From Schmidtea polychroa (Eukaryota): 64,000 nt of DNA. Below the pieces are notes generated by a model. It was not told the origin of the DNA. It searched no databases and was given only the letters and a program-made list of their open reading frames with translations. Of this stretch, positions 6,895 through 46,000 are shown in pieces (positions within the stretch are counted from its first letter, which is position 1; each line of letters starts with the position of its first letter). Both the position numbers and the translations under genes were made by a program. The DNA is taken from positions 111,268,397 through 111,332,396 of the forward strand of contig CM097887.1 in the NCBI GenBank assembly GCA_044892525.1, in the 5' to 3' direction.

Positions 6895-6953
6895 AACCAA
6901 CAAAAAGCGATGTATATAAATATGTATAAAATAACTAAATGTATATCAGTATC

Positions 6954-7613
6954 ATGAGAAGCCAACCGATCATTGTAACGCTGATGATGATGATAATTCT
7001 TGATCTAACCCGACGACAGCCAGTGAAACCCCAAATCGAACGGGTTCGAGACAACAGAAAACCCCATCAGAAAATCGAACCAACAACCCCATCGTGCACC
7101 TGCTCAAATGCCATAAGAACCAATCTTATCAATAACCTTCGAGCAACCCGAAACTACATCAACAACATCAGAATTATGTGTAATCACAACCCTATGTGTA
7201 AAATCATCGATAAAAGAATTCTGGACCAAATTCACCAAGTCGATCAATTAGAACAGCAGGTCCAACACCAAGAAACACAAAATCCACCCGATCAAGTAAA
7301 AAGCCCGAATGAAATAAACCACACCTATGAACTCCTCTATGTGGTAATCGCCGAGACCACCTTAATCTCAATAGTCACCCTGCTAAAAATCGGTAACCTC
7401 TGCAAAGTTTGGAAGAAAAGTCACCCCGTACCAGAAAGATCATCTCGAAGATCCCAAGAAGCTAACATGGCTGAAGTAATCCATGAAAACCTCCGTCAAC
7501 GAACCTCCATCGCAGAAACAGTCAGACCATCCGCAAGTCGCCGAATATACTACAACATCGAACCCCAACAACCAAATCCCCCATCATCAACGGCAACTGA
7601 ACACCAAACATGA
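6954..7613 (+). CDS. Accessory ORF F, small type I membrane protein in the env position
   Basis: N-terminal hydrophobic signal (IIVTLMMMIILDL), Cys-containing helical ectodomain (CTC; CNHNPMC), TM segment LLYVVIAETTLISIVTLLKI and a cytoplasmic tail. It is the last ORF before the PPT-like tract. Confidence 0.65.
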   Translation: MRSQPIIVTLMMMIILDLTRRQPVKPQIERVRDNRKPHQKIEPTTPSCTCSNAIRTNLINNLRATRNYINNIRIMCNHNPMCKIIDKRILDQIHQVDQLEQQVQHQETQNPPDQVKSPNEINHTYELLYVVIAETTLISIVTLLKIGNLCKVWKKSHPVPERSSRRSQEANMAEVIHENLRQRTSIAETVRPSASRRIYYNIEPQQPNPPSSTATEHQT

Positions 7614-7829: not shown

Positions 7830-7867
7830 AATTGCGGGACGCAATTTTAACGGGCCCCGGAGTGATT
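7830..7867 (+). other. Gypsy-type 3' hairpin and degenerate polypurine-tract region
   Basis: Perfect 7-bp stem AATTGCG/CGCAATT with a GGA loop (GGGACG core), followed by TTTTAACGGGCCCCGGAGTGATT directly before TG at 7868. The tract is not purely purine. Confidence 0.55.
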
Positions 7868-8365
7868 TGTTGGGCCAAGCTCCGAAGGTGTTGGAAAAAC
7901 GAACCTAGGAAGGGATAGAGTAAAATAAAATAAAAACATATAAAAATACGAGAAACATAGGAGGAAACAAATTAAATATCCAGAAAGAAATTAGAATAAA
8001 ATTAGAATAACTAAATAAAATAACAAAACCCCTAAAGGAAAAATAAGACAAGAGGGAAGGCACCTAATAAACGACAGTAAAAGAAAAAAAAATAAAATAG
8101 CAGAAAATTTAAGAAAAATGAACAAAAGTAAAAGAAGAAAAACAAAATAAAAATAAAAAAATCATCCATAAGGCTAATTAAAACAAAAAAGGAAGTTACA
8201 ATAAAATAGCAACAAAACCACAAGAAAAACAGATAAAATAATAAAAAATAGGAAAATAAATAAAATAATAATAAAAATAGGAAAAAGTCATTAAAATATA
8301 CCTGATTACATTAAAAAACATAAAAATCATAATAAACAATAATATTACATGCAAGTCGCGTCCTG

Positions 8366-8389
8366 ATTGGACGAAAAGTAATATATAAA
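8366..8389 (+). promoter_or_regulatory. LTR Pol II promoter: inverted CCAAT box and TATA box
   Basis: ATTGG at 8366-8370 and TATATAAA at 8382-8389, followed by a hairpin-forming region (8403-8436). Confidence 0.6.
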
Positions 8390-8709
8390 GAGCGACAAAA
8401 ATCTGTAGAGTATCATTCTAACCCGAAACTCTACAGGTAAAATTTTATCCTTTATAATATCATTCTAACCCGAAACTCTACAGAAAAGCTAGGAACCACT
8501 CACAAGCACAGATTATTGAACCATATTCATTTATCGGATAACATATACATTGAACGGAGATCGAATTCAGCTCAGTCGAACGAGTCTATCTAAAGAAAAC
8601 TTATATTACTTTGATCTAACACCTTCGGAGATTTTTGGTAAATTATGTTTTAGATTTTAGTATGATGATCTAAATATTTATTATGAATTTAACAAGTCGT
8701 TTATAATCC

Positions 8710-8750
8710 AATAAATTTCATATTTTAAACGAAGGTGTTGCTTTCTCTCT
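8710..8750 (+). terminator. Putative LTR polyadenylation signal with GU/U-rich downstream element
   Basis: AATAAA at 8710-8715 followed about 20 nt later by GGTGTTGCTTTCTCTCT. Confidence 0.4.
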
Positions 8751-10708
8751 ATGAGGCTGGCGACGGCGTCCTCTGGAATCCGGGTATGATGCAGTTGGGT
8801 TTTTCGAACGTCCTACGGAGAGGAAATTTACGAATATGAACTCGGGAAATTGAAGTGATAGAACTAGCCCAGGATCCATATGAATTTAGAAACTAAAGTG
8901 ATTACTTAATGAATACGAGATTTATGCTAACCAGAGTCATCATGCCCGGATTTCAAATGTCGTGGTCGCCAGGTGAACATTTATTTAATTGATTTTCTCA
9001 TAATTCCATTATTTCTATATTGATTCACTGAATAATTAAATTGTATTGTTGCACATTTATTGAGAATGGAGTTGCGATGAGACGGGTCGAGTCGTCCTTC
9101 ACACCGGTCCAAGAGCAGTGGGCAGAGATGCGTACTGCCTTGGGTGGGTTGTGAGGAGCGAGGAAACCATGTGAGATTTAACAAATCAAGTAAATGATTC
9201 TTTCATCGAGTGTAATCCACCCATCTTAGTCGTCGAAAACCATCCAATGCAGAAACTTCTGAGTGACATAGTTTGAGTCAACGATACCTTGGGAACTCCC
9301 GGAGGCATACCATTAGAACTATCATCAGCCTTGTATCCAATCACGTCATTAATAATCTTTGATTTGGAGCCTTATTCGTCTTGCATTGAGAGAAGCGACT
9401 GCTAGAACGTCTGCCGGAAGGAGTTATTAATTTCGAGTTTTTACGAGAGATTCTCTGTACTAAGCCCATTTCGTATCTTACAATCTGAAGGTGCTTTGGA
9501 AGCTACACCGCCGGGAGGTTAGCGAATAGATCCATCGTCTTGCTTATCGTCGACTCCGGGGGGACTTAATCATCAACCGACATCTAGCCGCTGTCATCGA
9601 TAATAGCCGTTTTAGAGATGAATGTAAACATCTCTAGATAGTAGATTTAAACACTGGCTATGAGTCCGAAGGAAACGGTCGCCAGCGACATCGGGTGGGC
9701 GTAGTAGACTGCCGGGAAATCGGTTGATAAGATATCTGAAGCCTCAGTCACGAGCGAACGAGTTGACAGTTTTTATCTCAAAACCAATTAGTGGAGCAAA
9801 ATCTAAATATGGAATCGATCTTATCTAGTAGATTCGCAATTTAGCCCACACAATTAGATTCACGAGTTTTCTATGACACCCTCTTAGATTTCCACCTATC
9901 TAGAAAGTCAGCCAGCGATGTCATGTCTAGTGTGCAGATAGTGGATAAATTTATCTCACGATTGTGTAACGGTAGACCAGGAGATGGTAGACTACATGTC
10001 CAATCCGACAGTGAGATTACGTCATACTGAATAGTAGAATGTTCTACCTAGTCCACGACCACAGGCTGAAGATAAATCATACAATGCATGCATACGAACA
10101 GACCTGACAACATCTGCTAGCCTACCTCCAGGGTAAAACTAATACACCACTACTCACAAACAAGCGTCGTTATGACGACATTTATGGCGCAAGATTTAAG
10201 ATGATCAAATAGCAAATTATGATAAGACTTAAATTGAATTTTGCGGTTCTTTTATGAAGCCGATCACGGCGGTTTAAAACCCCAATAGTCACCCGTCATA
10301 CCGAACTATGTTTTTGTGACTTCACGAGTGCGAAATTTTACGAGTATAGTAGGACGGGGAGTGGGAATGCTATTACTAGGGAAGGATAATTATAACAAAC
10401 TCGACTGTGGTAAATTAATAAAAGCACATTAAATAAAAATGGCCAATTTCGGACAACAAACATAAATTCAAAGTTAGGATAAATGTATTATTTTGAGGAA
10501 GCCCGTTTTCTTTTTTTTTTTTTTTTCTCTATCAGTGTGGATGCTTGCAGACAAATGAGTGTAAATGTTGACCAGTGATATGGGTAAGTGGGTCATTGTC
10601 GAGTAGGATGATTGGAAATAGGGTAAAAATTGTAGTCAAAATTTGGAAACGACACTCCAACGATTTTTTTTTTAAACTCTACAATTAACAAAACGTCTTG
10701 ATCTTTAG

Positions 10709-11470
10709 ATGCCTGCTTCAACCGCTACGAACAAGGATCTCCGTCCCTGCTTCTCCTGCGCAGATAAAAACGCAGACATAGCACAACTCCACTCATACAT
10801 TGGGGCACTGAAAAAGAGAATTGATCTCTATGAAGGCACGTGGTTCTCCCCGCCACAGATGAAGGAGGAGCGCAGTAAAATTCTTCGGTTGGAACATTGC
10901 CGGGACAGCCTCCTAGAGGAGAGTCGCTGTCAAAGACTGACGATCAAGGCGCAATCGGAAGCCCTCCACAAGGTCTACACGGAGGCAGAATTGGCCAAAC
11001 GGGTACGAGAATTTCCCGTCTTGGAGGCCAGCAATGTTTTTCCCACTCACCACCAAAGTACTTCCACCGCTACAACCAGTTGTCTGGGGCACGGCTCCTA
11101 TCTGCCGCCTGTTCCAGCACCGGCCTTATATAGTTGTCAGCCGCCGGTAGGTGGTCCATCCGACCCTATCTTGGCTCCAGTTTTAGTGACATCAGTTACA
11201 GCACCCGATGCGGACAACCATCAACCACAGCGTAAAAGAAAACGGCCGACCCGAGCCGCCAAAAATCAAAGACGTCGAGATGCAATCGCGGCTCTCGAGG
11301 CGTCGTTATCTGTGGCCAAGTCTTCTCTGGAGAAGTTATCGTCAATACCCTCTACCCCCACAAAGGAGATATTCCGGGTGATCTCGCCCGAAGGGGTCCA
11401 GCTCGTGCGAGACCGTCGGTTACCGGTCGACATCGACGAGATGATCGCCGAAGGGGAAGTTTTCCCATAA
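10709..11470 (+). CDS. LTR-encoded 253-aa protein (CxxC, coiled coil, Arg-rich motif, acidic C-terminus); intact copy
   Basis: Intact ORF preceded by TTTAG. Homologous ORFs at 32975-33748 and 43587-44360 share LE(H/R)CRDSLLEESRCQRLTIKAQSE with mostly synonymous differences. Confidence 0.85.
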   Translation: MPASTATNKDLRPCFSCADKNADIAQLHSYIGALKKRIDLYEGTWFSPPQMKEERSKILRLEHCRDSLLEESRCQRLTIKAQSEALHKVYTEAELAKRVREFPVLEASNVFPTHHQSTSTATTSCLGHGSYLPPVPAPALYSCQPPVGGPSDPILAPVLVTSVTAPDADNHQPQRKRKRPTRAAKNQRRRDAIAALEASLSVAKSSLEKLSSIPSTPTKEIFRVISPEGVQLVRDRRLPVDIDEMIAEGEVFP

Positions 11471-14270
11471 TTGGACGTGTCGTTGACCCATCTCTCATTC
11501 CACGCGATCAAGCTCAACAATCTTTATAAACGACTTAGATGATGCGTGTTGTGTACTCTCCTACGTGTTGTGATCGGAAATTTGTGTTCATATGTATCCT
11601 CAATTTCATTAATATAATCATAGTATTCGTTGTGTTGTCCCGTAAAAGTTATAGAGTGATGAGTTATGACTGGACGAATGGATTGGAATGATCATTGGAG
11701 AATGTGGGTCGTCCCCTTGGACCAGGGTCGTACCGAGAATACATGACGAGTAGGGGTAAGACCTTCTTAGGCACCGAGGAACCTGAACTGAGAGGGGGTC
11801 CGTAGTAGTCCTAAGGCAGGGGCTCACCTGCGGACCAACTCCGACCCGTGTGAGCAGTACCAACGTGGGTAGATCATCACGGGCTCACATGAGGGAATAT
11901 TTGTAAATCATGCGGGTTATGTGGGGGAAGGGCCCCGAGCTAAAGGAACATGATGCCAGCTGCACTACGAATGTCCGTTTGACTCCTCCCATATACGCCC
12001 AACAATAGTAATCGATAAAAGTGTAATTGTGATTGTCTCGAATAAAGATTATTGTGTTTGGTTGTTTAAATAAATTTCAGAAAGAACACAAAGGAGTCAG
12101 ACCGTGATACCGACTTGCACAAAATAACTAACACTAAAATGTAAGATGAAAAATATAAGATCATGAAGATTGTTGAAGAACAACCGAATATGACGAAGAA
12201 ACCTCTTCATAGTATGAAACCTCAAACCTTAAACAAGGTCTTGGAGAACAAAAAAGATTCTCTCGCAAAACTGTTTGATTACAGCTGAAGATAATTCTCC
12301 CTTTTAGACGAATATTTTGGATGTAGTCAGTCATAATGTCTGTAGAATAAAGTGAAAAGTAGAATGATTGAAACCAGTTTTCGTTCAACGGGTTTTGTCA
12401 AAAGGACAGAATTTTATTGGACTAAACCCAGTAAAATAACATTTTAAATTATCCTTTTGTTTAAATTAATAATAATTAAAAGAGAAAAATAAATGGTCAT
12501 CTGAGAAGACATCAAATCAAAGAGCAGTTATTTAAAATAATTAAAAACACCAATTAAAACTAAAGTAAAGTAAAACAAAAATAAGAGATAAATAAAACAA
12601 AATTAATAAAATCAGTATCACATTATGTATAACACACGAAACATATTTTAAACGCATAAAACTACAAAATAAATTGTCGAAAAAAGACAATAGCAAAAAA
12701 GTATCACCTTATCCATGGGAATCCTTAGAGGTTATTAGCCTAAACGGTGGTAAATGTTCTCAAGTCACCAGCTGATGGCAGTATCAGAGTCTCCATATGA
12801 GGCAGCCGTACAGTCATCTCTGACAATTATAATATTAAAATAACCGCTCGACATCATCTAAAGAAGGCCACGGCAATCAGTCAATTCTACAACCATGCCA
12901 TTCCGTTAATCATCAACCTAAGCTTGAACGAAATGGTTTTCTCCTTTACAGTCAATGCCAACATCTTCAACCTTGATGATTTGTTGGCCAATGTCGAAAG
13001 AGAGGTTATAAGCCCATCTGGAACTTTGTGTGTTGAACTAATTCATTTTGTTATGTTTTGTCAATTATTATTCATTAAATCTCTATCGCTGTATTGCTTT
13101 GATTTTCATTTTTTCTAAGTTACTAATAGATATATTATAAGTAATAATTATCATCTTCATCTTAACAGATAGGTGGTATTCAGGCCTCAAGAAGGAATTA
13201 ATATATCCCGTAAATTTTGAGGACCACAAATTTCGATATGTTATGACAATACCAACTTATCGTCTCTAGCTTTGGCGTAAGACCTTTTATAGCCCGTCCT
13301 GAACCCGTTTCAGATCGTACGATAATGAATAGTTCTGGCTTACCTGCTTATCGACCTCAATCTATTATGTACAATTCCAACATGGCCATCGATTTCGGTC
13401 CTCCAAGCTGATGGCTATTTATTATCGCTATTTATTTTAATTTGGAATACCATATAATCCTTATCGCACGATTCAGTAGGTTATGTTTTATATTTGTTTA
13501 TGTTTTTTTGTTATGTTTTGTTTCATGTATAATAATTTAAATCAATAATTTTTCTGATTCATTTTTTCTTAATTTAATTTAGTTATTATTATGTAAATTT
13601 TATGAATGCACTTGTCCAAAAATTCGATTTGTAAAGATATATGCTGTAGTCGGATGACAATCCACACCATTAAGCTGGGGGAGCTCAATGAAATTCTTGC
13701 GAAGTCGTGTGGAGTTTGGTGCCTCAATTTGAAAGTAAGCGGTACTCGAATTCCACTTAGAGAGGACTTTAGTGCAAATCACCTCCGTGACCATTTATAG
13801 TATCAAAATATGCATATGAAAACCAGATCAATGATGAAAACCCACATTTTATCCTTTCGAGCGATTTCCAGCGCAACCCAGAATACAAGAAAGTTGTACT
13901 GCTCGATACCCGTTGAGCTTTTCTCGCTGGTGTTGTCCACTTGTCAGTGAGAGGGCTCCAACCGATAACCGTGATTCCATGCTCGAACCCGGAGTGCTTC
14001 TTATTTACGAGCTTGAATTCAAATGTTTGTTCAATCTGTTGATCTCCCTTAGCTGCTATTTTCGTTTGTACTGTTGGGGTTGGGCTCGTTCAAAGAGCAA
14101 TTTCATTAACCGTATAGAGACTAGGATGATAGTTATAATAATAATAATATGTAGATAATAATAAAAATTATTAAAAATAGCATAGATATAATAATAGTAT
14201 TATTTAATTACCTAAAATAAATTAGAATTAGAATTAGTACATTTAAATTACTATATATAGATAGTATGCT

Positions 14271-16131: not shown

Positions 16132-17475
16132 CTCACTATAGGACATTGATTTATCATAAGGACATTCAATAAGCTAAAAATTTTCATTTTTAAATCAAAT
16201 TATTGTCAAAATGTTCGAAGATATTTCAGAAGCTTCTTCAGAATCAACAATTCCATTTCAAGAAATTCATAGAAATGTGTAAGTTTTTCATTAAACTTTA
16301 ATTATTTTTTAAAAATCGATATAGAATTACCATTAAAGATAAAGAAAGAATCATTAAATCCATGGAAGATGACCATGATTATTATGAATTAGGCCGTATT
16401 CTTGGAATTAAGCGGAATACAATAACCAGCATTATTTTGAAATATAAGAAGACTGGAATTTTATCCGCAGGAACAAGAGGAGGCAATCGACCAACAATTA
16501 TCACAACAATTATTGGCCAGGAATTATTGAACTATGTCGAAAGAAATTATTATTCGACATTAAATCAAATGAGATTGTTTTTATCTACAAATCACAATGT
16601 AGAAATTTCCACAAAATCAATATCCAGGTACCTGAAAAATCAATTATTAACCTTCAAAAGGATCAGGCCTTGTGTGGAAGAAAGAAATTCAGATAGAATA
16701 TTGGATATTCGGCAGACATATGTTACACGTCTGCTTGAAGAAGGTTGGAGGAGCAGTAAATCTATTTATATAGATGAATGCTCTTTCAATACATGGACAA
16801 ACAAGAGATTCGGAAGATCTCGAGTAGGCACTCGAATTTACAGCAATGTGCCAACAAATCGAGGTCCCAATATTTCATTAGTTTTGGCAATATCCAAAAA
16901 TGGGCCAATCCATTCACAAATCATCATTGGCTCTTTTAGAAAGGAATCATACCAGTCATTTATAACAGAATTGACTGAGAAACTGAATGGCTCTGGATTC
17001 ATTTTGATACACGATAATGCATCCATCCACAATAATGTATTATCTTTGAACAATCACATAGAAAAGTTGCCTCCATATAGTCCATTTTTGAACCCCATCG
17101 AAAGTGTGTTCAGCAAGATTAAAAATGGGGTAAGGACTAAAGTTTCCTCGACTAATGGATTTTCCAGGATGAGTTTCAATGACAGATTTATCGCAATATC
17201 CCAAGCAGTTATCGAGGAACTTAGCAAACCAGATTATAGTAATTTGAAAAATTACTATAATCATATTAAAAGGTTCTTCCCTAAATGATTGAAGAAGCAG
17301 GATATTTTAGGTGAATTCTGAAAAATGTAATGTATATTATAATAAATAATTAAATATCTTACTTCTTTATTCATTATTTTTAAAAAAATCTTAAAATTAA
17401 CTAAAATCCAGAACAAAGCTTATTTGACAAAGCTAAATGAATGTCTCATTTATGATAATTAAATGCGCTTTGGTG
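16132..17475 (+). mobile_element. IS630/Tc1/mariner-superfamily DNA transposon
   Basis: Transposase gene flanked by degenerate inverted ends (CATT.A.TTATCATAA...GACATTCA.T.AGCT on both sides) and TA dinucleotides at 16130-16131 and 17476-17477. Confidence 0.75.
16211..17321 (+). CDS. Tc1/mariner-type transposase, two exons (16211-16278, 16325-17321), premature TGA at 17286-17288
   Basis: 46-nt GTAAGT...TAG intron joins in frame. N-terminal HTH region. Catalytic motifs IYIDECSF, IHDNASIH and PPYSPFLNPIE. The frame continues LKKQDILGEF after the TGA. Confidence 0.85.
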
Positions 17476-22973: not shown

Positions 22974-25900
22974 TTACCTGTAATCGTAAACCGGTTGCAA
23001 AGAGATGTGATTTGATTTGACAGCAGAATTATCAGCGCAGCCGATGCCAACACTTCCTCCTGAAACAGCAGTAGATGTGCAAAATGGTTCCTGAGGTGCC
23101 AATACAGGCATTGAAGGGCTCGAATGATTCCAAGATGTGGGCACAGCTGCGGTAGCTGTTGCCGCCACCAAAGACGACGATTGTATGATTTTCGAGGACG
23201 ATTTGTCATGCTCAATGAAGCATCCGGGAACAAACAGCTCATTGATGTTTGATGAATCGGAAACCACATCGACCACATGATTAGCACCGTTACCAAGGGC
23301 ATTCATTGTACCAGTTAATAGCTGGCGTTGTGAAACTTTCTTATACTTGGAATTTTTGACGACGACCAAATCGAACTCATGTGGATCAATAAAAACGGTG
23401 GGATCACTGCCAACAAGATATGGGACTGGTAATTGAGTGAATGAATGATGATTAGTAGCTGCTGCAGAATCGGCATGGCCTCCGGCTGTCATCACTGATC
23501 CCACTGCGGAACCAGCAGCACCGTTGCCAACGCCTGATAATGGATCCCGCTGTTCTTGTCGCTGAAGGAGGCTGCTGATTTCATTGTGTGCTACATCAGA
23601 ATCGCTGTCGCTAGTGGACTGGGTCGGACTGAATTGTAATCCCGCTAGTTGCGGACGTGAACGGTGCTGGAGAGATGGCGGTGGAACTAAATTCACTCGT
23701 TCATTTGGACTGAATTCGTAATTAGGCTTGATAATCCCACAACAGCAACAACACGAGGAAGATGAACACGAGCAAGACAATGGCTGATTCTCATTGGTCG
23801 GCGCTTCAGTCACGCTAGAACGCTTTTTTATCAGCTTCAGCTTCAACAATCCAGTGGTCGGTCGGATGGACATATTCTGTGCACTCGGACTTGATCCAAC
23901 CGTCTCCATTGGCTGTTCTGGACTCGACATTTCTATCGATGAATTTTTATCCGATCGATCCTGGGGTTTTGTTGCCGCTAGCTTGAGAATCAATGGCGGT
24001 CTTTCAGGCGTTGCAATTTGCTGGTGTTTAATTCGTTTCATTTTGCACGGTGATATTTTGCGATGTTTCATTGGACTCGTGCTGCTGTTGCTATTGCCGG
24101 CACTTGTATTGTTTGTCAATGCTGCTGAACTTCGTCGGTCTTCTTTCCGTGTACAGAATATCCGTTTGGTGCTGTTACTGCTGATGTTCGATTCTATGGC
24201 GTATTTCTTGGCTTGTCGCTGGATCAATGGCGGCGGTGGAGGAGGCGGTGGGGGTGAAATTATTCCTGGATTAGATTTTATCATCTTTGTCCGTCGTGTC
24301 TGCTTTATGGTTTTAGTTGTTATTTGTTTTGCTGTAACTTTGGTTCTGATAGGAATATTGATTAATGGCGGTGGCGGAGGGGGAGGATCAAGGGGCCGCT
24401 TGGTTGTTGTGGAAACGATTTTCATGTGAGACAGACTGATTTTAACTTTTATTGCTAGCCGTGGACTGGCAAATGACGAATATTTATCATTGGTTAACGG
24501 TTGCGAGTGGTTACAATGGGAATCCTGACTCATTTGCGGCTCTACAACGTTCCCGTGATTGTCGCTCTTAATTTTTCGAATTTTCTCCAAATATTTCACT
24601 GATCGTTTACTTCCGGCTGAATTCTGGTGGATTTGTTTGCACAATTTCGATTCTGAAGTCACTGAAATCGTACCGCTCTTTTTATAATTGGCCTTTTTGT
24701 TGAGAGATTTCTCTTTTCTTTTGTCCGGGAAATTGCCTACCTGTGCCGTTGGTAATTCCAATACCTTTGTCGATCGAATGACACTGGAATTTAGGATCCA
24801 CTTGTTGCGTTGCTTGCTCTTGCGTAGCCAAGAGGCATCCGGTCGATTGGAGGAACTGCTGAAATCTTGGATTGTCAAATTATCCTCTATGTTCGTCTGG
24901 AATGGCAGCATCAATTTCGGCGGGCAAACCTCATCAAACTGCGGTTCCTCGTGCTCCTCGTCATATTCCTGCATTAGACTGCTGCATGGACTGATTGATT
25001 GGCAACTTTCGAGAAATCTGTCGAGATTCGCCAATTGTGTTGGATCACGTTTGATTGGGCTTATATCGGCCAATAAATCATCCTCGGTCAGTTCATCTTG
25101 TTCGGATAGTCGAGTGCAAACTGACAATGGACGAGAATGGTGCTGAATTGCTGGCGCAGTTCCGGTGCCAGTCCTAGACTGCTGTGGTTGTGTTGGTGCT
25201 GAGGCCACCTCAGTCGATGGCAAGAAACATTTGAGTAGCGGTGTGAGAATCTCAGAATGATGCCCGAGATGAGCGTAGATTAATTGCATAACTCGTTGTT
25301 GTTCAACATTTGATGCGGTTGCGGAGGCAATTGATGAAGAAATGGTCCGTGATGGAGTGGAATCAACTAATGGCGATTGTCTGGCAATAACGACACAATT
25401 CGAACTAGGAATCATAGCCTGTTGTGAAGCCGAGATAGAATATCCAGTATTGATCATCTCGATGACAGTTGCATTGAAATATGTAACCGGCTCAATACTG
25501 GCAACCGCAGAATCCGAGCATAAATCCTCCTCAATGATCAATTGTGCATATTTCAGATCAAGGATTGTCACTAACTCATCCAATATATCATCGAATTCCG
25601 GTTGATTGGGAGGGATTGAATTAGCAGCGACGATTGAAGCATCAGACATAACATTGATTCCATGACAGAAGCTATCGATCGAGGCATTATCTAGACCAGT
25701 CGGAATAATGCAATATTGCTGTGCGTCTGATGCAATCCCATTGGTCAGCTCATTGACGAATGAGGACGCAGCTGAGTCATCATCACCACCACATTGGCCA
25801 GACATTTCCCATGCCATCAATACATTATCTTTGTTGTTATTGATATTGTTACAGCTGGCATTGTTGGAATTTTCTTTTTTCGTTGATTTGCTGGACCTTG

Positions 25901-26841
25901 AAGCGTTCGGTCGTGATTTGACAGATGATTTGCGATTTGTTGGTCGTTTAAAGGTTTGAATTTGATTAATATTGTTTTGAATCGGCTGAGTAGTTATTTG
26001 GTGCATTATCTGTCCTGTCGGTTGATATTGCAATGTCCTCGGCATTATTGGATGCTGAGGTTTCGGTAATTTAGGCAAAAGCTTCGGTAAATTCGACCCG
26101 TGAGATGTTGTTGTCATGATGGCAGATGAACGGATATTAGAGGCCGCTGTTGCATTAATCATGGATCCAGCATCATGACTCGTTGTTGTGCTGTTTGTTT
26201 GATTAGATCCACTATTTGGCATACTGAAAAATGCGTGGGGTCCAACGAGATATGAAATAGGATTATTGGATTGATTTGTTTGGCCCATCATTTGATTAGA
26301 TTGTGACACAGCAGTTTGAGTAGTTTCAGGTGTATTCATTAGCGGCATTATTACAATATTAGGTGGCATCATAGACTGTTGATATTGGGCAAATTGGTTC
26401 ATGTTGATTGGAAGAAATTGCATGGATGCCTGCTGATTGTTCTGCTGTGGAGTTCCGTACGAGCAGGATGAAATCTGTTGTTGCAGTTGTTGATCAATAT
26501 CACAATCAGATCGCTTTCGTTGTTCATTGCTTCGAATTGGGATGCAGTGTGAACTTGAAGGACGATTTGGAACCTGGCTAATTGGAGGGGTAGCTGGTAA
26601 GCTTCGAGTTCCAGATTGAACTTTACAGTCCGATGACATTAATGATAAAAAATCATCTTGTGGCGCTTCGGTTTTTGTTGGTTTGTTCGATCTAAATCTA
26701 TCAGAAATAACCAGCAACTATTTTCATATTAGTATACCCAGTAATGTTTGACATGTTAGAGTTACTAGAACAAACTATTGATTCATTTCTAATAGGAGCT
26801 ACCGTTGCTCGTAAAGGAGTTGTTTGGGATCTCACTGCGTT
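22974..26841 (-). CDS. Large low-complexity (S/Q/N/P-rich) probably nuclear protein; 3.7-kb exon plus an upstream 104-nt exon; gene ends uncertain
   Basis: 1247-codon open frame. A 40-nt intron (26698-26737) joins exon 26738-26841 in frame. Possible donor at the 3' end (AG|GTAATA). Basic clusters and poly-Pro runs. Confidence 0.8.
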
Positions 26842-28461: not shown

Positions 28462-31029
28462 TGTATATGTATAACGTCATATGTATAAATAAAAATAATT
28501 AAAAAGATAAGTTTTAATTTATACAGCCAATTATGATTTTAATTGTTAAATAAGTTTGGTTAAATTACAAATCTATGTTTTTTCGTTGCGGGCCGCGTGT
28601 TTGAGACCCCTGCTGTATACTATGCTATATAAATTATATTTAGCCAAGAAATTAAAACAGCAATAAATACAATTTTTGCAACTCTTTTTGTTTTTGAGGC
28701 ATACTTCACTTATTATTTCTGAATCTGAATCAGTTAATTCATCGGTGTTATATATATCTTGCATAGATATTTTAAAGTCGTCCCATTTTGTCATTAAATC
28801 AGTTAATTCCTCCTTAAATTTGACCCTGTAACTGTTTTATGATATTTTACTAGTAATATACTGAGCTCTTCTAAACTGTTTTCTGAACATTTATTGTCGG
28901 TAAAATTTTTAGGGTCTAATATTGCCATGTCTGCATATAATTTTCCATGATTTTTAAAACGTTTTTTTATAGTATTTATTGTTGTATCCATAATTACGGT
29001 AAACGTGGATATTTTATATTTTTCGATTGGGTTTTGAAATTCATGATCTTCGGTTATTTCGTCAGGCATTCTCTTTCGTCGTCTAAATCTCTCTTCTGGT
29101 ATATCTTCTTCGACAATTATTTCACAATTTTCCTCTTCAAGTGGTGTATTCGCACGTTTAGCAAATGAATTTAACTTTTCTTTTACATTACTAAAATCAC
29201 GTGAAAATTTTTTTAAAGAATTTAATGTGGAAGTTACCATGTGATAAGCTGTTAAATAATTTAAATTGCTGGTTTGTAAATATTTAGATAACGGTCCAAT
29301 ATATTGAAAAACTTTTAAATAAATATGCGCTGTAAGTATAACTTTAAATTTCAATAAAGACTCCATTAGTGTTGATGCAGAGTGTCTAATTTGAGCATTG
29401 AAAGATACATTTGACACAAAATAATTTAAAGTTATCAATAAGTCTACATATAATGAGGTTTCTTTGTTATCATAATGCCCAAAAATTTTTTTAAGTGCTG
29501 TTTCTTTTGCTGACCATCTTGTTTCCCCTATAACGTTAAGTCTCTGATATTTACACTGGTGTTTTCCCAAACATCCATACGTTGATAAGATTCTCTTAGA
29601 AATACGGAACACGAGTTGAGTAATTGAAAGAGAGAAGTACTTTCAATTACCGAACATTTAGCATCTGTGACAACTAAATTCAATACGTGGGCATAACACT
29701 AAACGTGAATTTGACCAGGCGATTCTTTACTTAACAACTGGTGAAGCCATTATACTGTCTACGCCTGTTTGCTGCTCCGTCTGTCGAATTACCGATACAA
29801 TTTTTAATATTTAATCCACTGTTTTTAATAAAAGTACTAATTAAATTGCACATGTCTTTCCCTGTAGACGATTTGCAATTTAAAACAGCTACTACACGTT
29901 CATAAATATTTCCCTTTACATATCGGACAACAATTAAGCACTGATCCTTTTGTGTTATGTCCTGTGTGGTGTCAATTTGCAAAGAAAAAATACCTGCTTC
30001 CTGTATATCTAACAAAATGCTATCTTGAATTAATTTTCCACTGGCCAAAATTACCTGGTTAATAGTAGATTTTGAAATTAATGAAATGAAACTGCCTCTA
30101 CCTTTAGTTACCGCAGATGTTTCATTATTTTTCTTCTTTTCTTTGATGACTCTTGATAAATGTAATTTTAAAACAGCGTCATATTTAGAGAGTAGCAATA
30201 TTATTTCTAAAAAATTACCATGGTCTTCTTGATTATTTTCAAGTGAAAGTGAAGAAACAGATTCAGATCGGTGAGCGCGAAAAGCTAATCCTCTTTTTCC
30301 AATTAATTTTACAACATCTATAATTCTTTCCAATACTTGCTTTCGTTCAATAATATTTTTCTGACGTATGCTTCCTTCATTTGTTAACATTAAATTATAA
30401 ATATCTTTGCCTTTAGATTTGAGCATATGACAATTTACACAATTTTCATGAGTTTTACTATTTTCATGTTCTTTAACACGTTGCAAAGTGTGCCTTCAGT
30501 CCGTCATTCCACGATTTACAAACGAACTCTCGTTTGTAATATCACTGTAAGCCAAACACATGGTACAAAATAGAGCATTTTTTTCCAAACTATATGATAG
30601 CCAACGCCTATTTACTTTATCTTCTCTATAAAAAATTAAATTTGGTTTAAAAGGTAAATTAGTAATTTAATAATTTTGATTTCCTGGCCTTATGAAATAA
30701 TTATCTGATAAGAAATTAAACATTTTGTTTGTTGGTGTTATCATTTCATTATTGGCCTGGGTGGAAGTTGAAACTGAAGTTATTTCTTCGAAAATTGATG
30801 TTTCAACTTTATCTGCGCCAATGGGACACATAATAGTATCATCATTCCTCGAAACTGATGAACTTAAATCCAAATCCTTATTCAAATTTTCAATATCAAA
30901 TGCATTGATCTTAGAAGTTGAAGCAAACATATCACTTAATTTAAGAGTATTTTTAGCAGCTTCTTGCATGATTTTTTGTCACTTTTCTTTCTCTTTTTGA
31001 GCGCCTCCTTTAAATTTTCTTTTTTCCAT
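27997..31029 (-). pseudogene. hAT transposase, with stops, frameshifts and a MITE insertion
   Basis: Motifs GLAFRAH, DHGNFLEII, FSLQIDTTQD, GNSTDGAAN, ETRWSAK, and the C-terminal dimerisation motif TLSSTQVACERSF.KLKIIKNR. Confidence 0.9.
28249..28612. mobile_element. Non-autonomous hAT MITE nested in the transposase
   Basis: Ends CAGGGGT.../...GTTTGAGACCCCTG, perfect 8-bp TSD CTGTATAC (28241-28248, 28613-28620), internal (AAT)n. Confidence 0.92.
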
Positions 31030-32430: not shown

Positions 32431-34300
32431 TGTTGGGTGCTTAGGGGTGAGCCGCGATGGTAGTTGTTAGGGGAAGTGAAAACTGCTCAGAGACTCCTTC
32501 CTAAACGCTCATTATGATTATTATCTGACTGCCACATGTGTACCCATGATATAGATCATGTTGGAGATGTACTCACGGGTTGGAATTCATGAGCATGTAA
32601 GCCGCTGCGTCAGAACTACTCCTCATGATATTCACTTTTCGGGTCCTAGAATACCGATAGAAGGACTTACATCTTACTTATTTTCTCATATCGAGATACT
32701 GACAAACCTCTGGTCCAGTTGAGGTCATCCTTAATCACTTTCTTTCTCTATTACACGACCATCAGACCGAAACATTTTTCAATTTCTTGACACCGATAAG
32801 ACAGACAAAAACATACGACATCAAAATTGTATTAAATTCACAGTACGTGAGATACTACATGGTCTTAACACATCCAACAAGTCATACGACAAAATTTACG
32901 ATATTAGTAGTAGATCAAAAGGATACATTTTGTCCGGATCAATTACAGTTAACGACGATAGACGGCCTGGGAAGTTATAATAGTTCCGCACCTTCCTTCA
33001 AGAGAGCAGCGATATCTATTTCCTACTGTGGGTCTCTGATCGGTGGAGTATTATAGGAGAGCACAACCCTATAATGAGGAGTACTGGGCAGTGCTTGGTT
33101 AGATGTAGATTCCTTTTTCACCGTACTAGGGACAGCAAACAACATTGCTTCCACGACAGCTATTTCATCTCGTCGTTTCTTTGAGCTCTCAGCACGAGTG
33201 AGGAGATTGCGCTTCCGAGAAGTTGGCTGATTAGGAACGGTGAAAGTGGTTATCGGAACTGTTAGTGATGTGGTTACGCTGGGTGGTTGAGCCAGGAACA
33301 CACTGGTTTCCATAAAAATGGCATCGGAGATAAGTGAAGGGGACATTTCGGGTCAGTGATTAAGGCAGATCGCCGTAGAAAGGACTCGAGTTTCGTCGGC
33401 ACGATGATGGACCGAAAAGACGTTTAACTTATCGATGACCGGAAACTCAGTGATTCGACTTTTTAACTCCGCCTCCGAACAAATGCTGTGGAGGGTCTCC
33501 GACTGGGCCTTGATAGTGAGTCGCTGACACCGACTCTCCTCTAGCAAACTGTCTCGACAGTGCTCTAAACACAAGATTTTTCTATTGGCCTTCTTCATGA
33601 GTGATGGGGAGAACCACGTACCTTCGAGTGCATCGATGCGCTTCTTCAGAGCCCCGAGATTGTCTTTCAGTTGCCGGATTGTCGGATTTTTATCTGCGCA
33701 CGAAAAACACGGCTTTGGGCCAGGCTTGGTAAGATTTGATTTGGACATTTATTAAAAATTTAGAAAGATATTTATAGGGTGAACGCGAATATCAAATGGA
33801 TATATAAGTGATCAGACATCTGGTCTATAAGTCATAAGCATATACAAATCGAACTTAACCCTACTTCTAGCATTTAAATTTTACACGATGGTCGGATTTC
33901 AGTGGATCTCCACCTCTTACCCTACTATCATCTCTGTGTATGTCTTGGAAAATTTTCCGAGCATGGGGACGAAATTTGATCGACGAATATAGGTGAACTT
34001 CTCGTTATTATTAAAGAAAAGGTTAATTAATCCAGAGGTTTAATTTGAATGATGATTAAATTTAAAAGTTATTTTAAATAATATTAGGGATAAATTAAAT
34101 GAACGGGTAGTCGGGGAAAACCTTCCTTCTTATTTAAATGAATATTTAAATTTAATTCAAGTATTAATTAGAAAAGTGATTCGATTCGAGAATTGGCTTA
34201 ATTAGTATTAGAGACGAATCAAATATATGTTTATCAACAAATCGAATAGACTAAATAATTGTTTAGGTGATGGATTCAAAGTAACATTAATTTTTATTGG
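32431..34300 (-). repeat. Partial LTR, second subfamily copy (terminus at 32431)
   Basis: Minus strand ends in CACCCAACA. Contains the conserved terminal block and the LTR-ORF homolog, and abuts the MULE at ~34302. Confidence 0.7.
32975..33748 (-). pseudogene. LTR-encoded ORF homolog, copy 2, with two in-frame stops (33353-33355, 33023-33025)
   Basis: ORFs 33353-33748 and 33023-33346 are in one frame. The frame continues EIDIAALLKEGAELL*, matching the C-terminus of copies 1 and 3. Confidence 0.85.
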
Positions 34301-34301
34301 C

Positions 34302-36049
34302 TCCTAATTAAATGCAAACTAAATAATCCCATTTTGCACACTAAAAAATTAACATTTGCTAACTATTTTTGCAAACTAAAAAATAATTTTTGCACACTAT
34401 AAAATTGATTTTTGCTAACTATTTTTTGAAAACTAAAAAAATGATTTTTGCACACTATTAAATACTTATTTGCTAACTATATTTTGCAAACTAAAAAAAT
34501 GATTTTTGCACACTATAAAATCGATATTTGCTAACTATGTTCTGCAAACTAAAAAATAAATATTTGCACACTATTTTCAAAAATATTTATACATTATAAA
34601 ATAAAAATTCCAGATATATTTCAATGAATAAAAAAGCATAGAGATTACAATTTATTGTGAATGCTTAAATACAACAATTTATAGACATTTAAAAAATGGT
34701 TTAACAAAATGTTTTGTATGATGGCTGCATTTTATTTGCACTAGATATAATAAATTTTTAGTTCTACTGCAACAGCAATGCTTTTCTTGCTTTTGCAGGG
34801 CGACCTCTCTTTCTTTTGGTTCCAATTGGAACATTTTTCGCTTCGGTTGGAGGGGCTACAAGCTTTAGTCGAATAGCTAATCCAACAATGTGTTTGCAAA
34901 GCATTTTTTTAAAAAAAGAAGGGCAGTTACAGTCTCCGTTAATCCAGTCATTTTGATCTTTTGGTAAAATAGTAGTCCATGAAAGAAATGCATTAATTTT
35001 AAACTCATCAAACGTTTCCCTGTTGTCAATTCCATCGTAGGTTTCTGTCAAATCTTTTGCAGCAATTTTGTAAACAACACCACTCTCTGTTGATTCTGGA
35101 GAAATGGTTTTCTTCAACTTTGCATACTGGTATGAGCTAGTACAAAGTTCCAAGTCAATTTCTGGTTCGGTTTTGATGACTTTAATTCCAGATTCGTAAT
35201 TGTTGGACCACCTTTCAATCCAATCAACCAATCCAACAGTAAATCTTGATAGTGAGACTCACTCTCTCATAGAATCTTCATCTTTCATGACTCGGTTGTA
35301 TGCCTCAAGGGCATTGTTTGTGCTAGGTGTTAGATTTTTGGCACCTTCAAACCAATTTTTATTTGATTTCAGCCATTCAGCTGTGAAGTATTCGACAAAC
35401 TCCTTGTTTGCCTTCCACTTTTTCAAGAATAAAATTGATGCTTTTTCAAAAACTTCTCTGGATTGACTGAGTTGCAAAGAATCAATGTCAGACAAAATTT
35501 CCTGTCTTGCATCTTTTGGAATCAAAGAATCCACTTTTTTCTGAACATTTTTTTTCATATGAGCCCAGCACATAATCACCAATACGTCTTTGCCAAACAC
35601 TGCTATGAAAGAGTTTTGGATGCTTTTTGATGCATCAGAAATTAATGTGCTTGGATTGAAGGGAGCATTGAAGATTTTAGGAACTTCATTCTATTGGCCT
35701 TCTTCATGAGTGATGGGGAGAACCACGTACCTTCGAGTGCATCGATGCGCTTCTTCAGAGCCCCGAGATTGTCTTTCAGTTGCCGGATTGTCGGATTTTT
35801 ATCTGCGCTTTATAGTTATAGACTTTATTATTTATAGTTACCACTTATTATTTATAGTTAGCATTTATTATTTATAGTTAGCATTTATTATTTATAGTTA
35901 GCATTTATTATTTATAGTTAGCATTTATTATTTATAGTTAGCATTTTGTATTTATAGTTAGCATTTATTATTTATAGTTAGCATTTATTATTTATAGTTA
36001 GCATTTATAGTGTGCAAATACATTAAAATAGTGTGCATTTAAATTGTAG
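34302..36049 (-). mobile_element. Internally deleted Mutator-like element (MULE) with repeat-built inverted ends
   Basis: Transposase fragment 34764-35688 (ISDASKSI...MCWAHMKK, STNNALE, SWIM finger CNCPSFFKKMLCKH, AT-hook KRGRP). Left end has ~57-bp repeats with TTGCACACTA/TTGCTAACTA; right end has the inverse motifs TAGTTAGCA/TAGTGTGCA. No TSD found. Confidence 0.8.
35809..36008. repeat. 20-bp minisatellite (TTTATAGTTAGCATTTATTA)n, ~10 units, forming the MULE right subterminal region
   Basis: Direct inspection. Confidence 0.92.
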
Positions 36050-38049
36050 CGATTTTTATTTATCTACCAGAATGATTCTACTTTGTGTGGATATTACTGA
36101 GGTTGACATTAGTTGGCTCTCAATGCTAATGGAATTTTTTATATTTTCAGTCTCAGTTTCCATATCCTGTTTAGATTTATTAAATTCGATTAGTTTCAAT
36201 GTGCGATGAAGACTACTGGACAATTGATTTAATGGTGAGAAAATTCGTAAAATTATTACGAGGAACACCTGACACTGAACGAACTACAGTGTGGTCGAAA
36301 AGGAAATTAACTAAACAACGGACGATTTGAATGTTATTGTTTATTCAGAGCCACTTTGATTGACATTTTGTCATGTGATTGAGATTTTGGTGAAAATTTT
36401 AACCTCCGGCTGGTCGATTAATCGGCCCAACTTCTGAAAACTTAGTTGAAATCTCATGCTAACTATCTCTAAAGCGCAATTCCTGAATGGAACTATGTTT
36501 TATGAAATTTACTGCTTTTCTATTCTTCTATTAGATATATTAAATCAAGGAAAATGCGGTTCTCATCGATTTCTACTGGATGGCTAAAGAAAATCAATTT
36601 TGCGTGGAAAGTGGATTTCAGGACATCTGTATAAGAGAGAACAAAAAGGACTCTATGGTCGTTAGAAATCTAATTCGACTGTCGATCGATCTCGACATCA
36701 TTGTTGACTTGAAGAATCATAGTAATTAGAATCGTTGTTATCTCGGAAAACGAAACTTCCTTCTCACTTTGTCATTTTACTCACATGGTCACGATTCCAA
36801 CGTGCCAAACTACAAAGACATCTACCGGCCATCAGCACGAGTGCCAACGAAGCACAAACATCCTCACAATCTGGTCTCGTTAATATGATTTATAAAAATA
36901 TATAAAATATCATACAAATGATTAGAAAGTTTTTGGTTATTCAACTATCGAAAAATATTCTCCTAATTGACAACTATCCCTGGACTTGTCGATAATAATT
37001 CTACCGTCTATCTGCGTTCGCAAACTGTTGCTGTGCTTCAGTCATCGTTTCGACTCTATAAGCATTTTCATATGGATATTCAACTTGTCTCAGTCTCATT
37101 TTAATTATGCAAATTTTTCATTTCGTCCTCAGTGAATCGTTATATACTGACACTCAATTCATTTGATTTTCCATTCATCTAGCCCTTCTCTTTCATCTAT
37201 CAATGCATAATAAAAGACATAAAAATGCAGAAAATACCCAAAGAGGACGGCATACAAAGCGATGAGTAAAAAACAATCAATTTAGAGAAAAATTAATTAA
37301 TTTAAATAAAAATTGAATAATTTAAACAAAAAATAAATTAAGCCAAAAAAATAATTAAAATTGAAAATCCTGATATACTCTCTTACTCGATCTTGACTGG
37401 TTAAAAATTCACCCAAAATACTATATATAGGTCCCTCTCAGTGGACACTTTACTGCTATTTTTCAAAATCATTTAGATCCATAACAATTACTGACTATTA
37501 TCAATTCAACAAATCACTAGTTTTCACTCAACCATCAGGAGCATTCTTTGGGACGATTTTCAATCTATAGTAAATTTATGCATAATGTTTGGTATACATT
37601 TGATGTTTATTTTAAATTTAAACGATTCAGTTTTTGCTTAAAAAGTCTCGTTCTTTTTCCTCATAATTCTTTAATACGAATGTTTTAGTAGATCCTTTTT
37701 ATTAGTTTTATGAGTATAGTGCCGTTGAGATACTAATTTCGCTAGAGGTGTGAAGAGAATGCATGTCTTTTCATCAGACGGTTCAACATTGTAGTTTCAA
37801 TCACTCAGTTGATTGAACATCGATTGGAGGGCCTCAAACGAGTTTATCGTTGCTGACGTTTCATAGATGGTGATAGGATAGTTTTAGAATGGAATGATGC
37901 ACGAGTAGACTTATCGGAGGGAGTTATTAAATGATCTCGATCAGTGTTTATCAACCTTTTTGACTTTCAGTTCCACATTTTTTTCACAAAAATCCCAGGC
38001 TCATTTTCACATTAAAAGACACGATTTTTAAGAAATGTAATTTTATTTA

Positions 38050-43080: not shown

Positions 43081-46000
43081 TGTTGGTCACTTAGGGGAAT
43101 GTTATTTATTTACTGAGGAATTCTCCTAAGAGCCCTTCATGACTTGACCATGATCTCCCTCATGAGTACCCATGAAAATAGGTCATGTTGGTGCTGCACG
43201 GAATTTGTGAACAGATGAGCCCCTGTGTTAGGACTACTATTCACAATATTCGCTGTACGGGTTCGTGAATGCCGATAGAAGGTCTTACATATACTCTACC
43301 TGTCTTTCTGACTACAATCTGTCTCTGGTCCAGTGAGACAACTTCAAAATTCTTAATTTTTCGACATGATTACGGATCTGGAAAATAACGTCTCTCTATA
43401 TAATTTCATACAAAAGCGTGAGAACATAAGACTTTTTTCAACAAATTCTATTACATACCACATAAATAACACGGGTGAATCATCTAATGTTTTACACATT
43501 GGTATTACAGTGTCCATACTAAGCGACAACCAATACGTTTTGACTGGAAAGTTGGTTTAGTCCTGGAGATACGAGATCGAATCTTTTCACACCAGGTCTC
43601 CTTCTTCGATCATAGCATCAATGTCCGTTTGTAGATGCGGATCGTGATGGAGCACAAAAGTTGACGAAGGGATTACTCGATAAGAATCTATTGCAAGTGG
43701 TGTGAGAAGATTACCACTAGACGATCTTACGTTGGCCTCTTGAGCCGCTAATAATGTGGACTCCAAAGCGGCGATCTCTCTTTGTCGCCTTTTCGTTCGC
43801 TCTGCACGAGTTGGACGTTTTCTTTTCCAGGGACTGGGTTTCGTTGGAACGTCTGGTTGTGCTACTGGTGCGGCGAGTAACGACTTAGTGAGAGCGGAAT
43901 CCGGATGCACGTTGATACTTGGTTCACCGTCCAAGATAGGAGCGATGTATGGCGGGAGATCGGGGCCGTGGCCTTGACAACCAGAAGATGTTAGTGAAGT
44001 TATTTCATCCATCCGATGGTGGATGAGGAAAATATTCAGCTTATCTGCCATTGGGTACTCTTTCACTTGCCGCTTCAACTCTGATTCAGAGTATATTTGA
44101 TGCATGGCCTCCGACTGGGCCTTGATCGTGAGCCGTTGGCATCGACTTTCCTCCAGGAGGCTATCCCGGCAACGTTCGAGCCGTAAGATTTTCATGTCAG
44201 CCTCTTTCATTTGTGGCAGGGAGAACTACGTACTTTTCAGCGTATCGATACGCTTCTTCAGAGCCCGTATATGATCTTTCAGTTTTGCATATCCGCATTT
44301 TTGTCGGCACACGAAAAACAGGGCTTCGGGCCGCTTTTTGGCAAGTTAGGTTCCGACCTACTAGAAAAGTGAGTTAACAATAAAACCACTAATATACGAA
44401 ATAGATCAATACACTTCCATCGTATATCAGGCACTATACTACCCTCCTTATTTTTATCCTCAATTAACCTCTCAAAATCTTATTGTCCTATTAAACGCGA
44501 TCGTTTTCTCACATATTTTAGTATTTTTTTCAGTTGTTTCATTTTGGTCTCAGCGGGAGTGAGATTTGATCATGGAGTTTGAACCACTTACATTATTATT
44601 ATCGTTAAAAAATTCGCTGTAGTATATAGCCCCTTTCAGAATACCATGAATTACGAAATCTCCCTACAAAATATAAGCTCTATTAACCACTCGGAATCGC
44701 TATCTTATTTTAATTACCATATTCATTCATGGCGAGAATCGTTTCCCTAATCACCGCATGGACTACCATTTTAATTACTTCGAAAAATAACAAATGGTGC
44801 AAGAAATTTTATGATGTTAGACTAGGATTTTTTGGCGGTCTCTCCCCTTAGATAGGACGCCGCCATTCTCTTATGATATTAAATTTTTAGAACTATTCCT
44901 TCTCAGCTCGATTTGTTTTAATAAAGACCATATTTTTATAATGAATTTATTTTAATTAGTTTGGTCAATTTATTTGTTGATCTAGTAACGTTGCATGTTT
45001 ATCTTATCGACTAGATATGTGTGACAGTCATAGTAAATTCCTCTGCCGAGTAAAAGAAAATTGATATGAAAGGCTGATGACCAATTCCAAACAACCGATT
45101 CAGTGGTATTCTTGGCTCCGACTATTTATCTGTCATTTTCTCGTAACTTCACTTTGATCGTTTATATGTATCAAATTTATTGAAACGAATTGTCAATTTC
45201 CTGTTTGCGAATGTTTATGATAGCAGGAAACGTATATCCTAAGAGACGGACGAGGTGAAATTCCGGGGAGTGTTGTGCATCGTCCCATTGGAGACCGGAT
45301 GTTTACTATAGCTGACGCTCCAAGATCTATTCTATTATCTTGGGAATCTCATATTTGTCAATGTTAACGACCTATCGTGAATGAAAGAAATCTATCGGAA
45401 TGAATGAAAATCATACACTTAAAAAATATGGAATTCACTGATGAAAATGTCGAAGCTCTCTCATCTACTTTCGAGTTCGTATAAGTGCCGATGACCATAA
45501 AAGAAATCGAAAGTGATCATAGTGTTGTGGTTTCAACCGCTGGACGAATTTACATCGTAACCGTGTCAGAAAATATGGTATTTGTTCTTGTTCAAGTCCT
45601 CGAATTTGTGCTCATTACTATCATAGAGAGTTGCCACTCGACGAAAAATCAACTTTAATTGTATGACTTAGTCATTTCTAAATATATGTCGTGACTCTAG
45701 CATCGCCATCTGTGAGGATCATCTGGTAACTACCAACACAAGGGTCAGTAATCCCAAAACGACCCTCACAAACGGGTCAAACCATATCTATGTGCCTAAA
45801 TAATCATAATAAATCAAATCAATTCTCAAATTAAAATAAATCCAATCCACTCTAGCCTTTAAGAATAGTTAAATCAAATCTAATCGACTCCAGTATTCAG
45901 CGATCACACCCTTCTCAAATTGGAGATTACACCTCTTAGTACTTCCTTCCTCAATAACAATCGATTCCTCATTTTTCGACCATTGCTACTCAGCCTAACC

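Follow-up and report, generated by a model that had tools for sequence, protein, structure and literature searches.

A conserved open reading frame within the LTR of a Burro-like giant retroelement of Schmidtea polychroa as a candidate regulator gene

The LTR gene and its host element

The window, a 64,000-nucleotide stretch of Schmidtea polychroa DNA, contains at 10709-11470 (+ strand) an intact open reading frame (ORF) of 253 amino acids. The ORF lies within a 4,137-bp 3' LTR (7868-12004, + strand) that has TG..CA ends, an 8-bp terminal inverted repeat and a 4-bp target-site duplication and is 100% identical to a 5' LTR 26,425 bp upstream, so the ORF is LTR-encoded, as the preliminary description had it. 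With its two 4,137-bp LTRs, the host element is 30,562 bp (30.6 kb) in length, and the location of the ORF inside the LTR results in two copies of it per element. Pfam matches in the interior are found in the order zf-CCHC, PF24664 (E 2.6e-72), RVP, RVT_1, RT_RNaseH and rve; a RING ORF, Gag zinc knuckles and a mononegavirus-type fusion glycoprotein are present ahead of protease, reverse transcriptase (RT), RNase H and integrase. The cargo domains of the element are ankyrin repeats together with RING and MATH ORFs (MATH/TRAF), and no Pfam match to BIR or BCL2-like cargo was found in the open stretches scanned, which represent part of the internal region.

Burro/GYPSM1 elements are giant gypsy-like planarian LTR retrotransposons of more than 30 kb, with a CCHC-knuckle Gag, a fusion glycoprotein of mononegavirus type that lies between gag and protease, a PR-RT-RH-IN arrangement and cargo that includes ankyrin, RING and MATH (PMC6431247). 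The window element matches them in size, LTRs, Gag knuckles, position of the fusion glycoprotein, PR-RT-RH-IN and cargo, and on this sequence evidence the host element is a Burro-like giant Ty3/gypsy retroelement. It differs from Burro/GYPSM1 as described in carrying RING and MATH ORFs downstream of pol and in having a gene inside the LTR, which the Burro section of that paper does not mention (PMC6431247). The polyprotein frame of the window element contains at least four in-frame stops (L032:7170, L033:1613, 6299 and 8480; upstream of or overlapping the window start). Together with the 100% identical LTRs, these stops point to a very recent insertion of a defective copy in which the LTR gene is intact, and the copy was probably trans-mobilised. 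Immediately before the 3' LTR (window 7838-7867) there is no clear polypurine tract, and the primer-site-like sequence after the 5' LTR (L032:3580-3606), which we take to resemble a tRNA-Pro site, starts several bases inside. Upstream of the 5' LTR (L031:1-3301) there is a Polinton/Maverick-like remnant (integrase, chromo-like, A32-type ATPase) as well as a TBP-like open frame. Elsewhere, the window carries an intact-looking Tc1/mariner-type DDE transposase (16362-17288), hAT-like transposase remnants (DUF4371, 28803-30969) and a low-complexity open frame of 1,221 codons (22974-26639, - strand) that is probably a host exon.

Two other copies of the ORF are present in the window, both on the - strand and both with about 45% protein identity to the first. 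Copy 2 (32975-33748) is a broken ORF in an old LTR with its end at 32431 and an insertion interrupting it upstream; copy 3 (43587-44360) is a broken ORF in an old LTR remnant ending at 43081. Copy 1 alone is intact. In copy 2 the frame is interrupted by stops at codons 132 and 242, and copy 3 has lost its start codon and carries a frameshift shortly after CFSC, plus a stop. CFSC, the basic motif, the I-A-x-x-E helix and the DI..(M/L)(I/L).EG tail had been reported in all three copies and were found in each of them. Codons were compared over a 24-codon block (10889-10960, + strand). Relative to copy 2 (33568-33497, - strand), 15 of the 24 codons differ through 16 nucleotide changes and all 15 differences are synonymous, which reproduces the count of silent differences made previously. 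Copies 1 and 3 differ at 12 codons (11 synonymous) and copies 2 and 3 at 15 (14 synonymous). A 120-bp piece at 35689-35808 is 100% identical to part of copy 2 (33580-33699) and sits, with a transposase-like remnant, in the insertion (about 34299-36074) that interrupts the LTR of copy 2; judged by this identity, it is a local capture or duplication.

Selection on the LTR-encoded protein

A search of the genome returned 6,951 first-look candidates, of which the best 150 were scored: 38 were at least 96% identical and the others 72-77% identical. A stop inside the match was seen in 6 of these best 150, the remaining 144 being stop-free in a ranking that favours intact copies. Many scored copies were paired about 26 kb apart, and eight such pairs were 99.8-100% identical across the shared stretch, a sign of recent mobility in the family. 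When copies 2 and 3 served as queries, older lineages were reached at about 45-83% identity, many of them broken.

Selection was estimated with Nei-Gojobori counts on 16 intact copies. The dN/dS ratio was 0.087 between the window copy and 12 diverged intact copies and 0.078 among those 12 (66 pairs), both values being rough since silent sites are near saturation; an unsaturated pair gave 0.072 with a dS of 0.24. Distinct variants in 28 intact young copies (of 30) gave 0.19. By region, the ratio was about 0.035-0.038 for residues 45-115, 0.05-0.11 for the basic motif and 0.16-0.23 for the linker. In 11 paired-LTR elements, residues 12-103 (dN 0.029, dS 1.34) and RT-RNase H (dN 0.0049, dS 0.26) were equally constrained, with a ratio of about 0.02 for both. 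The basic region is more variable (dN 0.15 versus 0.03 in the core), and the core is 96% identical between LTR types although its silent sites are saturated. Constraint peaks in the N-terminal CxxC/coiled-coil core and not in the basic motif. Maintenance of amino acids in spite of near-saturated silent sites is the opposite of a constraint at the nucleotide level and indicates selection on the protein. The strong purifying selection proposed from the window copies is therefore found genome-wide (dN/dS about 0.08, far beyond chance), and these substitution patterns identify the LTR ORF as a protein gene under strong purifying selection.

The ORF could instead be a decayed or recycled piece of gag, transposase or host exon, or its conservation could reflect a DNA or RNA signal. 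This would fit the breakage of two of the three window copies and the stops in many old copies. It is contradicted by the amino acids kept at near-saturated silent sites, by the stop-free state of most of the best 150 matches (intact copies being favoured by the ranking), and by profile searches that were blank in the element interior, Pfam, PDB sequences and large protein sets (see below). We regard this explanation as very improbable and largely refuted.

When nine elements were compared, all ORFs but one were under purifying selection (dN/dS 0.02-0.19). The last internal ORF (6939-7613) is the fastest evolving, with a dN/dS of 0.54, and occurs as very divergent types in two of the eight elements compared with the window element (dN about 0.8); it is a candidate host-conflict gene. 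Pooled dS in the nine elements was 1.27 for the LTR gene versus 0.09-0.75 for 15 internal segments (RT 0.24), a contrast that is biased by the choice of seven of the eight comparison elements for their diverged LTR gene. Pairwise identities revealed mosaics within the LTR too. Old LTR types appear to have been shuffled onto a more uniform interior.

Protein architecture and predicted LTR signals

The protein comprises a CxxC motif (residues 14/17), a predicted coiled-coil core (17-101), a disordered Pro/Ser/Thr linker (about 109-174), a basic helix followed by a short zipper (175-211) and an acidic-hydrophobic tail (238-250). AlphaFold2, run on a 30-row alignment, gave a low-confidence model (pLDDT 63.7, pTM 0.25) with helices at 17-45, 48-89, 92-101, 182-211 and 242-247 and a disordered linker at 109-174. 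Residues C14, F15, C17, D19 and C64 are invariant, and helix 17-45 has an Ile/Leu heptad. Each row contains 3-7 cysteines over the whole protein, as one CxxC plus scattered residues. Patterns of leucine-rich CRM1 nuclear export signals (NES) occur in 18-28 of the 30 rows, all inside predicted coiled-coil helices, and carry no weight as evidence of export. There is no transmembrane segment (maximum 19-residue hydropathy 1.07), and a Met-Gly start suited to N-myristoylation is found in 0 of 30 rows.

Searches for homologs gave the following results. In Pfam, the window protein matched no family at E<=1 and no family was common to more than one of 30 members. PDB sequences gave no match at E<=10. 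The 5.8-billion protein set was blank with the protein, with the alignment and against longer proteins, and no homolog was found among 1.84 billion representatives or in viral contigs. A profile search of the element's own internal region was blank as well (best E 1.2). Foldseek gave no match at E<=0.001 with the low-confidence model (pTM 0.25), and fold comparison returned generic long coiled coils only (best Z 6.0, rmsd 7.2, 94 aligned). Among the nearest named clusters in the Atlas were hepatitis delta antigen (0.77) and bZIP_2 (0.76), both in the chance range. The possibility of a gag or transposase fragment, raised in the preliminary description, was checked, and there was no match to gag, pol or transposase in Pfam, the element interior or the 1.84 billion representatives. 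By these searches, the product of the LTR ORF is a new protein family.

The basic motif (11231-11278, + strand; residues 175-190) contains R179 and R182, fixed in 26/26 rows, and Lys-dominant positions 176, 178, 185 and 188. About half of it is lysine, and an import pattern, K-K/R-x-K/R, is present in 25 of the 26 rows that reach the motif. These properties bear on whether the protein is a host-directed or structural adaptor, whose coiled-coil rod would bind either a protein of the element or a nuclear complex of the host, with the basic motif as an import signal only; the LTR location would then serve early production, including from solo LTRs. The core is the most constrained part of the protein and is nearly invariant between LTR types, nothing beyond generic long coiled coils matches the model, RING, MATH and ankyrin are further host-like cargo of the element, and a Burro1 domain is reported, second-hand, to protect stem cells (PMC13465017). 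Against an adaptor, positions 179 and 182 are Arg-only (189/190 nearly so) and lie on one helix face, which we judge stricter than import usually needs, and both a transmembrane segment and Gly2 are absent. We consider the adaptor unlikely.

DNA similarity between LTR types extends from 7868 to about 9240 and from about 10690 to 12004, the middle being poorly conserved. A predicted promoter (8362-8389, + strand) consists of a reverse CCAAT box (8366-8370) and a TATA box (8382-8389) and is conserved in the diverged LTR copies aligned. An initiator is located 33-35 nt from TATA in 15/15 copies examined, and the predicted start is the A at 8415. An inverted repeat (8403-8411 / 8428-8436, spanning 8403-8438, + strand) flanks this start, with a donor-like GT at 8437; over this first donor, it is predicted to fold at -17.5 kcal/mol when U3 is included versus -2.1 from the start site. 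The leader (8415-8637, + strand) is free of ATG and ends at a second donor-like GT, at 8638, which is conserved. In 13 of 15 copies, which are related, the leader contains 0 ATG versus 41.6 expected from composition (two copies had no donor call), and the next equal stretches contain 145. The first poly(A) signal, AATAAA at 8710-8715 (+ strand), is invariant in 8/8 aligned copies and is the predicted end of R; in 15 copies it lies between +239 and +370 relative to the start.

An acceptor-like pyrimidine tract with YAG (10690-10708, + strand) stands directly before the ATG of the LTR gene. In 27 of the 29 lineages with upstream sequence, YAG is found 0-3 nt before the ATG (background 0.084; the nominal P of 3e-27 is overstated, as lineages share ancestry). 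This offset varies over 0-3 nt, as would be the case if the upstream exon were non-coding. Elsewhere in the element, a YAG is likewise located 2-5 nt ahead of an in-frame ATG in the first internal ORF and in four downstream ORFs. A second predicted poly(A) site (11593-11640, + strand) is made of TGTA, AATATA (11611-11616) and a GU/U-rich tract; its AATA-N-A column is conserved in the alignment, and the hexamer is located 89-166 nt past the stop in 18/19 lineages. From the positions of promoter, leader, poly(A) signals and acceptor, the LTR gene is predicted to fall beyond the transcription start, within U5 or else a very long R rather than in U3, and to form a self-contained spliced unit. Among the matches listed from contigs of four possibly-RNA runs, which may be DNA or unspliced RNA, neither a spliced leader-to-ORF junction nor a sense poly(A) end was found; contigs of three of the four runs, with the same uncertainty as to their nature, continue without a break across the acceptor in a related copy.

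Other features of the LTR were noted. Contigs of run X6 end in 16 T (+ strand) at window 8700 and 7734, one contig each; these ends would correspond to minus-strand polyadenylated or oligo-dT-primed LTR RNA, with internal priming as the alternative. The sequence after the start (8411-8436, 8458-8484) is tandemly repeated one to three times according to LTR type, and the repeats enclose a GT..AG stretch of about 48 nt. More conserved non-coding blocks are found at 8940-8975 and 9085-9230, without coding periodicity, and a third donor-like GT (8973) is present; all lie past the first poly(A) signal. For 9085-9170, a hidden antisense ORF was considered and rejected, since codon periodicity is absent and the frames differ among copies.

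By the same expression route, the gene could produce a factor that binds DNA and either activates the LTR promoter or counters its silencing (Tas/Tax-like or bZIP-like), in which basic helix and zipper would bind, for example, the start-site inverted repeat and the acidic tail would recruit the transcription machinery. The basic region runs directly into an amphipathic helix (I193, L196, L200, L207, L210), the tail has a hydrophobic-x-x-hydrophobic-hydrophobic pattern in 25/25 rows that reach it, the palindrome at the promoter is invariant, and bZIP_2 is among the nearest named Atlas clusters, at a level below the useful one. However, a Pfam bZIP or HLH match is absent in 30 members, Pro180 (24/26 rows) splits the basic region, the zipper has fewer than three heptads, the palindrome is equally explained by an RNA stem that masks the donor, and the basic-tail part is independent of promoter-R type (rho 0.06, 9 elements). 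Such a transactivator seems to us rather doubtful.

The LTR also contains a covarying stem-loop block near its end (11705-11900, + strand; donor-like GTAAG at 11756). Both sides changed in 17 of 43 pairs, and 0 of 500 shuffles scored as high; 95.4% of cells are paired versus 33-47% in slid controls, and G-U pairs indicate the + strand. The test used 10 sequences and a structure derived from the same alignment. No Rfam family reached its gathering score for the block, two matches being far below. Any LTR element is expected to have packaging or priming hairpins beside its primer site, and the block, which adjoins that site, may be an ordinary structure of this type. Pairing of 9060-9240 with 11690-11940 was rejected, as its scores equal those of shuffles in 4/4 copies. 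Basic motif and hairpins correlated in 9 elements (rho 0.76); co-evolution of the two was also rejected, because with 22 copies the signal falls with distance, as expected from physical linkage, and the result was the same with 19 copies (two old-lineage copies and one near-duplicate dropped). Of the idea that a conserved LTR RNA block is the target of the protein, the covarying block stands and a special co-inheritance with the basic motif does not.

Proposed function and comparison with known regulators

The genomic RNA has to keep a 4-kb LTR that contains several splice sites and to pass one or two poly(A) signals, and the default short product would encode the protein; this has the logic of an early/late switch and led us to rank an RNA regulator of the Rev/Rex kind first. 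We tentatively favour a product that works in the nucleus as an oligomer and regulates how the element's own RNA is processed, Rev/Rex-like but unrelated and made from a short spliced mRNA with internal polyadenylation, as a plausible reading that nonetheless falls short of being probable. Transcription would start near 8415, and splicing from the leader donor at 8437 or 8638 to the acceptor at 10708 would take out the first poly(A) signal. The RNA would end near 11635, and the mRNA would be made by default from the 5' LTR or a solo LTR. The protein would dimerise via its N-terminal coiled coil, possibly with a Zn clasp formed by two CxxC motifs, enter the nucleus via the KRKR cluster and bind element RNA by the Arg face of helix 182-190. 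Once bound, it would favour read-through, intron retention or export of longer RNAs, which need the whole LTR unspliced for copying.

The preliminary description had seen a Rev/Tat-like Arg-rich motif and, on that basis, a trans-acting regulator that had gone unrecognised. A predicted basic helix with invariant R179 and R182 agrees with the former; the lysine content and the absence of a Rev/Tat family match do not, and the motif fits a plain nuclear localisation signal (NLS), which argues against the Rev-like reading. As to the regulator, the protein matches no known family in the searches and the element has a splicing and poly(A) problem that such a factor could solve, whereas the constraint on the core outranks that on the basic motif. 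Taken further, a U5 gene whose product binds element RNA and allows two poly(A) sites to be passed and LTR introns to be retained would constitute an early/late switch in the style of complex retroviruses, evolved independently in a Ty3/gypsy element and packed entirely into the LTR, a possibility in which we have less confidence. If this were true, thousands of LTR copies would supply the protein in trans, with LTR types recombining onto a shared interior.

Complex retroviruses are characterised by dedicated regulators that act at the RNA level. With its own acceptor and poly(A) signal, a gene situated downstream of the LTR start would turn every solo LTR into a small expression unit. Even if the Rev-like guess fails, there remains a new family with a core constrained like reverse transcriptase. 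The family is genuine and new, and it occupies an unusual place in an element of known kind. The literature searched in full text reported neither a gene encoded in the LTR nor a Rev-like factor for gypsy elements, although figures or supplements of Grohme 2018 and Lee 2026 may show the ORF, and LTR-encoded or accessory genes are unmentioned in the passages of PMC13524379 searched. Burro elements are described as abundant and piRNA-controlled, with reported effects on stem cells (PMC6431247, PMC13465017, PMC8532177), Burro1 being under PIWI control (PMC8532177). These properties make the LTR protein a single RNAi target for the control of the element's own expression.

The protein and its gene were compared with known regulators and LTR genes. 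Basic regions of bZIP and bHLH proteins have invariant residues. The window protein is unlike them in having no Pfam match to these families and in its Pro180. Hepatitis delta antigen combines an N-terminal coiled coil, an import signal and basic RNA-binding helices; the layout is shared, but given the chance-range Atlas score and the lack of a Pfam match this is an analogy only. Lentiviral Tat has a compact seven-cysteine domain, unlike the single CxxC plus scattered cysteines found here, and no TAR-like hairpin is seen from the predicted start, on which this result depends (first 86 nt, -2.1 kcal/mol). The coding sequences of MMTV sag and HIV nef are located in U3, before the start site, and their products are membrane-directed. 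Like them, the window gene has its coding sequence in both LTRs; unlike them, the ORF is 2.3 kb downstream of the predicted start and past the first poly(A) signal, and the product has no transmembrane segment or Gly2.

Rev and Rex are small nuclear proteins with a basic helix and an oligomerisation region, are made from spliced mRNA and have the RRE and RexRE as RNA targets. The LTR-encoded protein resembles HIV Rev and HTLV Rex as a small, predicted nuclear protein with a basic helix, an oligomerisation-type region and a predicted spliced default mRNA. As with RRE and RexRE, a structured RNA block is present in the same element (position of RexRE according to PMC3694450). In contrast to Rev and Rex, it has no sequence or family match to them, is twice the size with a 90-residue CxxC/coiled-coil core, is about half lysine in its basic motif, is wholly LTR-encoded in a Ty3/gypsy element and has NES patterns only inside the coiled coil. 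Foamy virus Tas has a basic region and an acidic C-terminus, and the window protein is likewise a small regulator-like protein with both. The Tas gene is 3' of env and has an internal promoter in env (PMC3694450); the window gene differs in lying downstream of the predicted LTR start and in having its own second poly(A) signal. The same paper states that, as of 2013, a retrovirus-encoded protein affecting polyadenylation had not yet been shown, so protein-driven control of polyadenylation would be without precedent there (PMC3694450). Foamy viruses have a splice donor in R that precedes the poly(A) signal (PMC3694450). The window element is like them in having such a donor and in its predicted masking, which U3 pairing would bring about in read-through RNA only, a parallel to the foamy-virus poly(A) switch.
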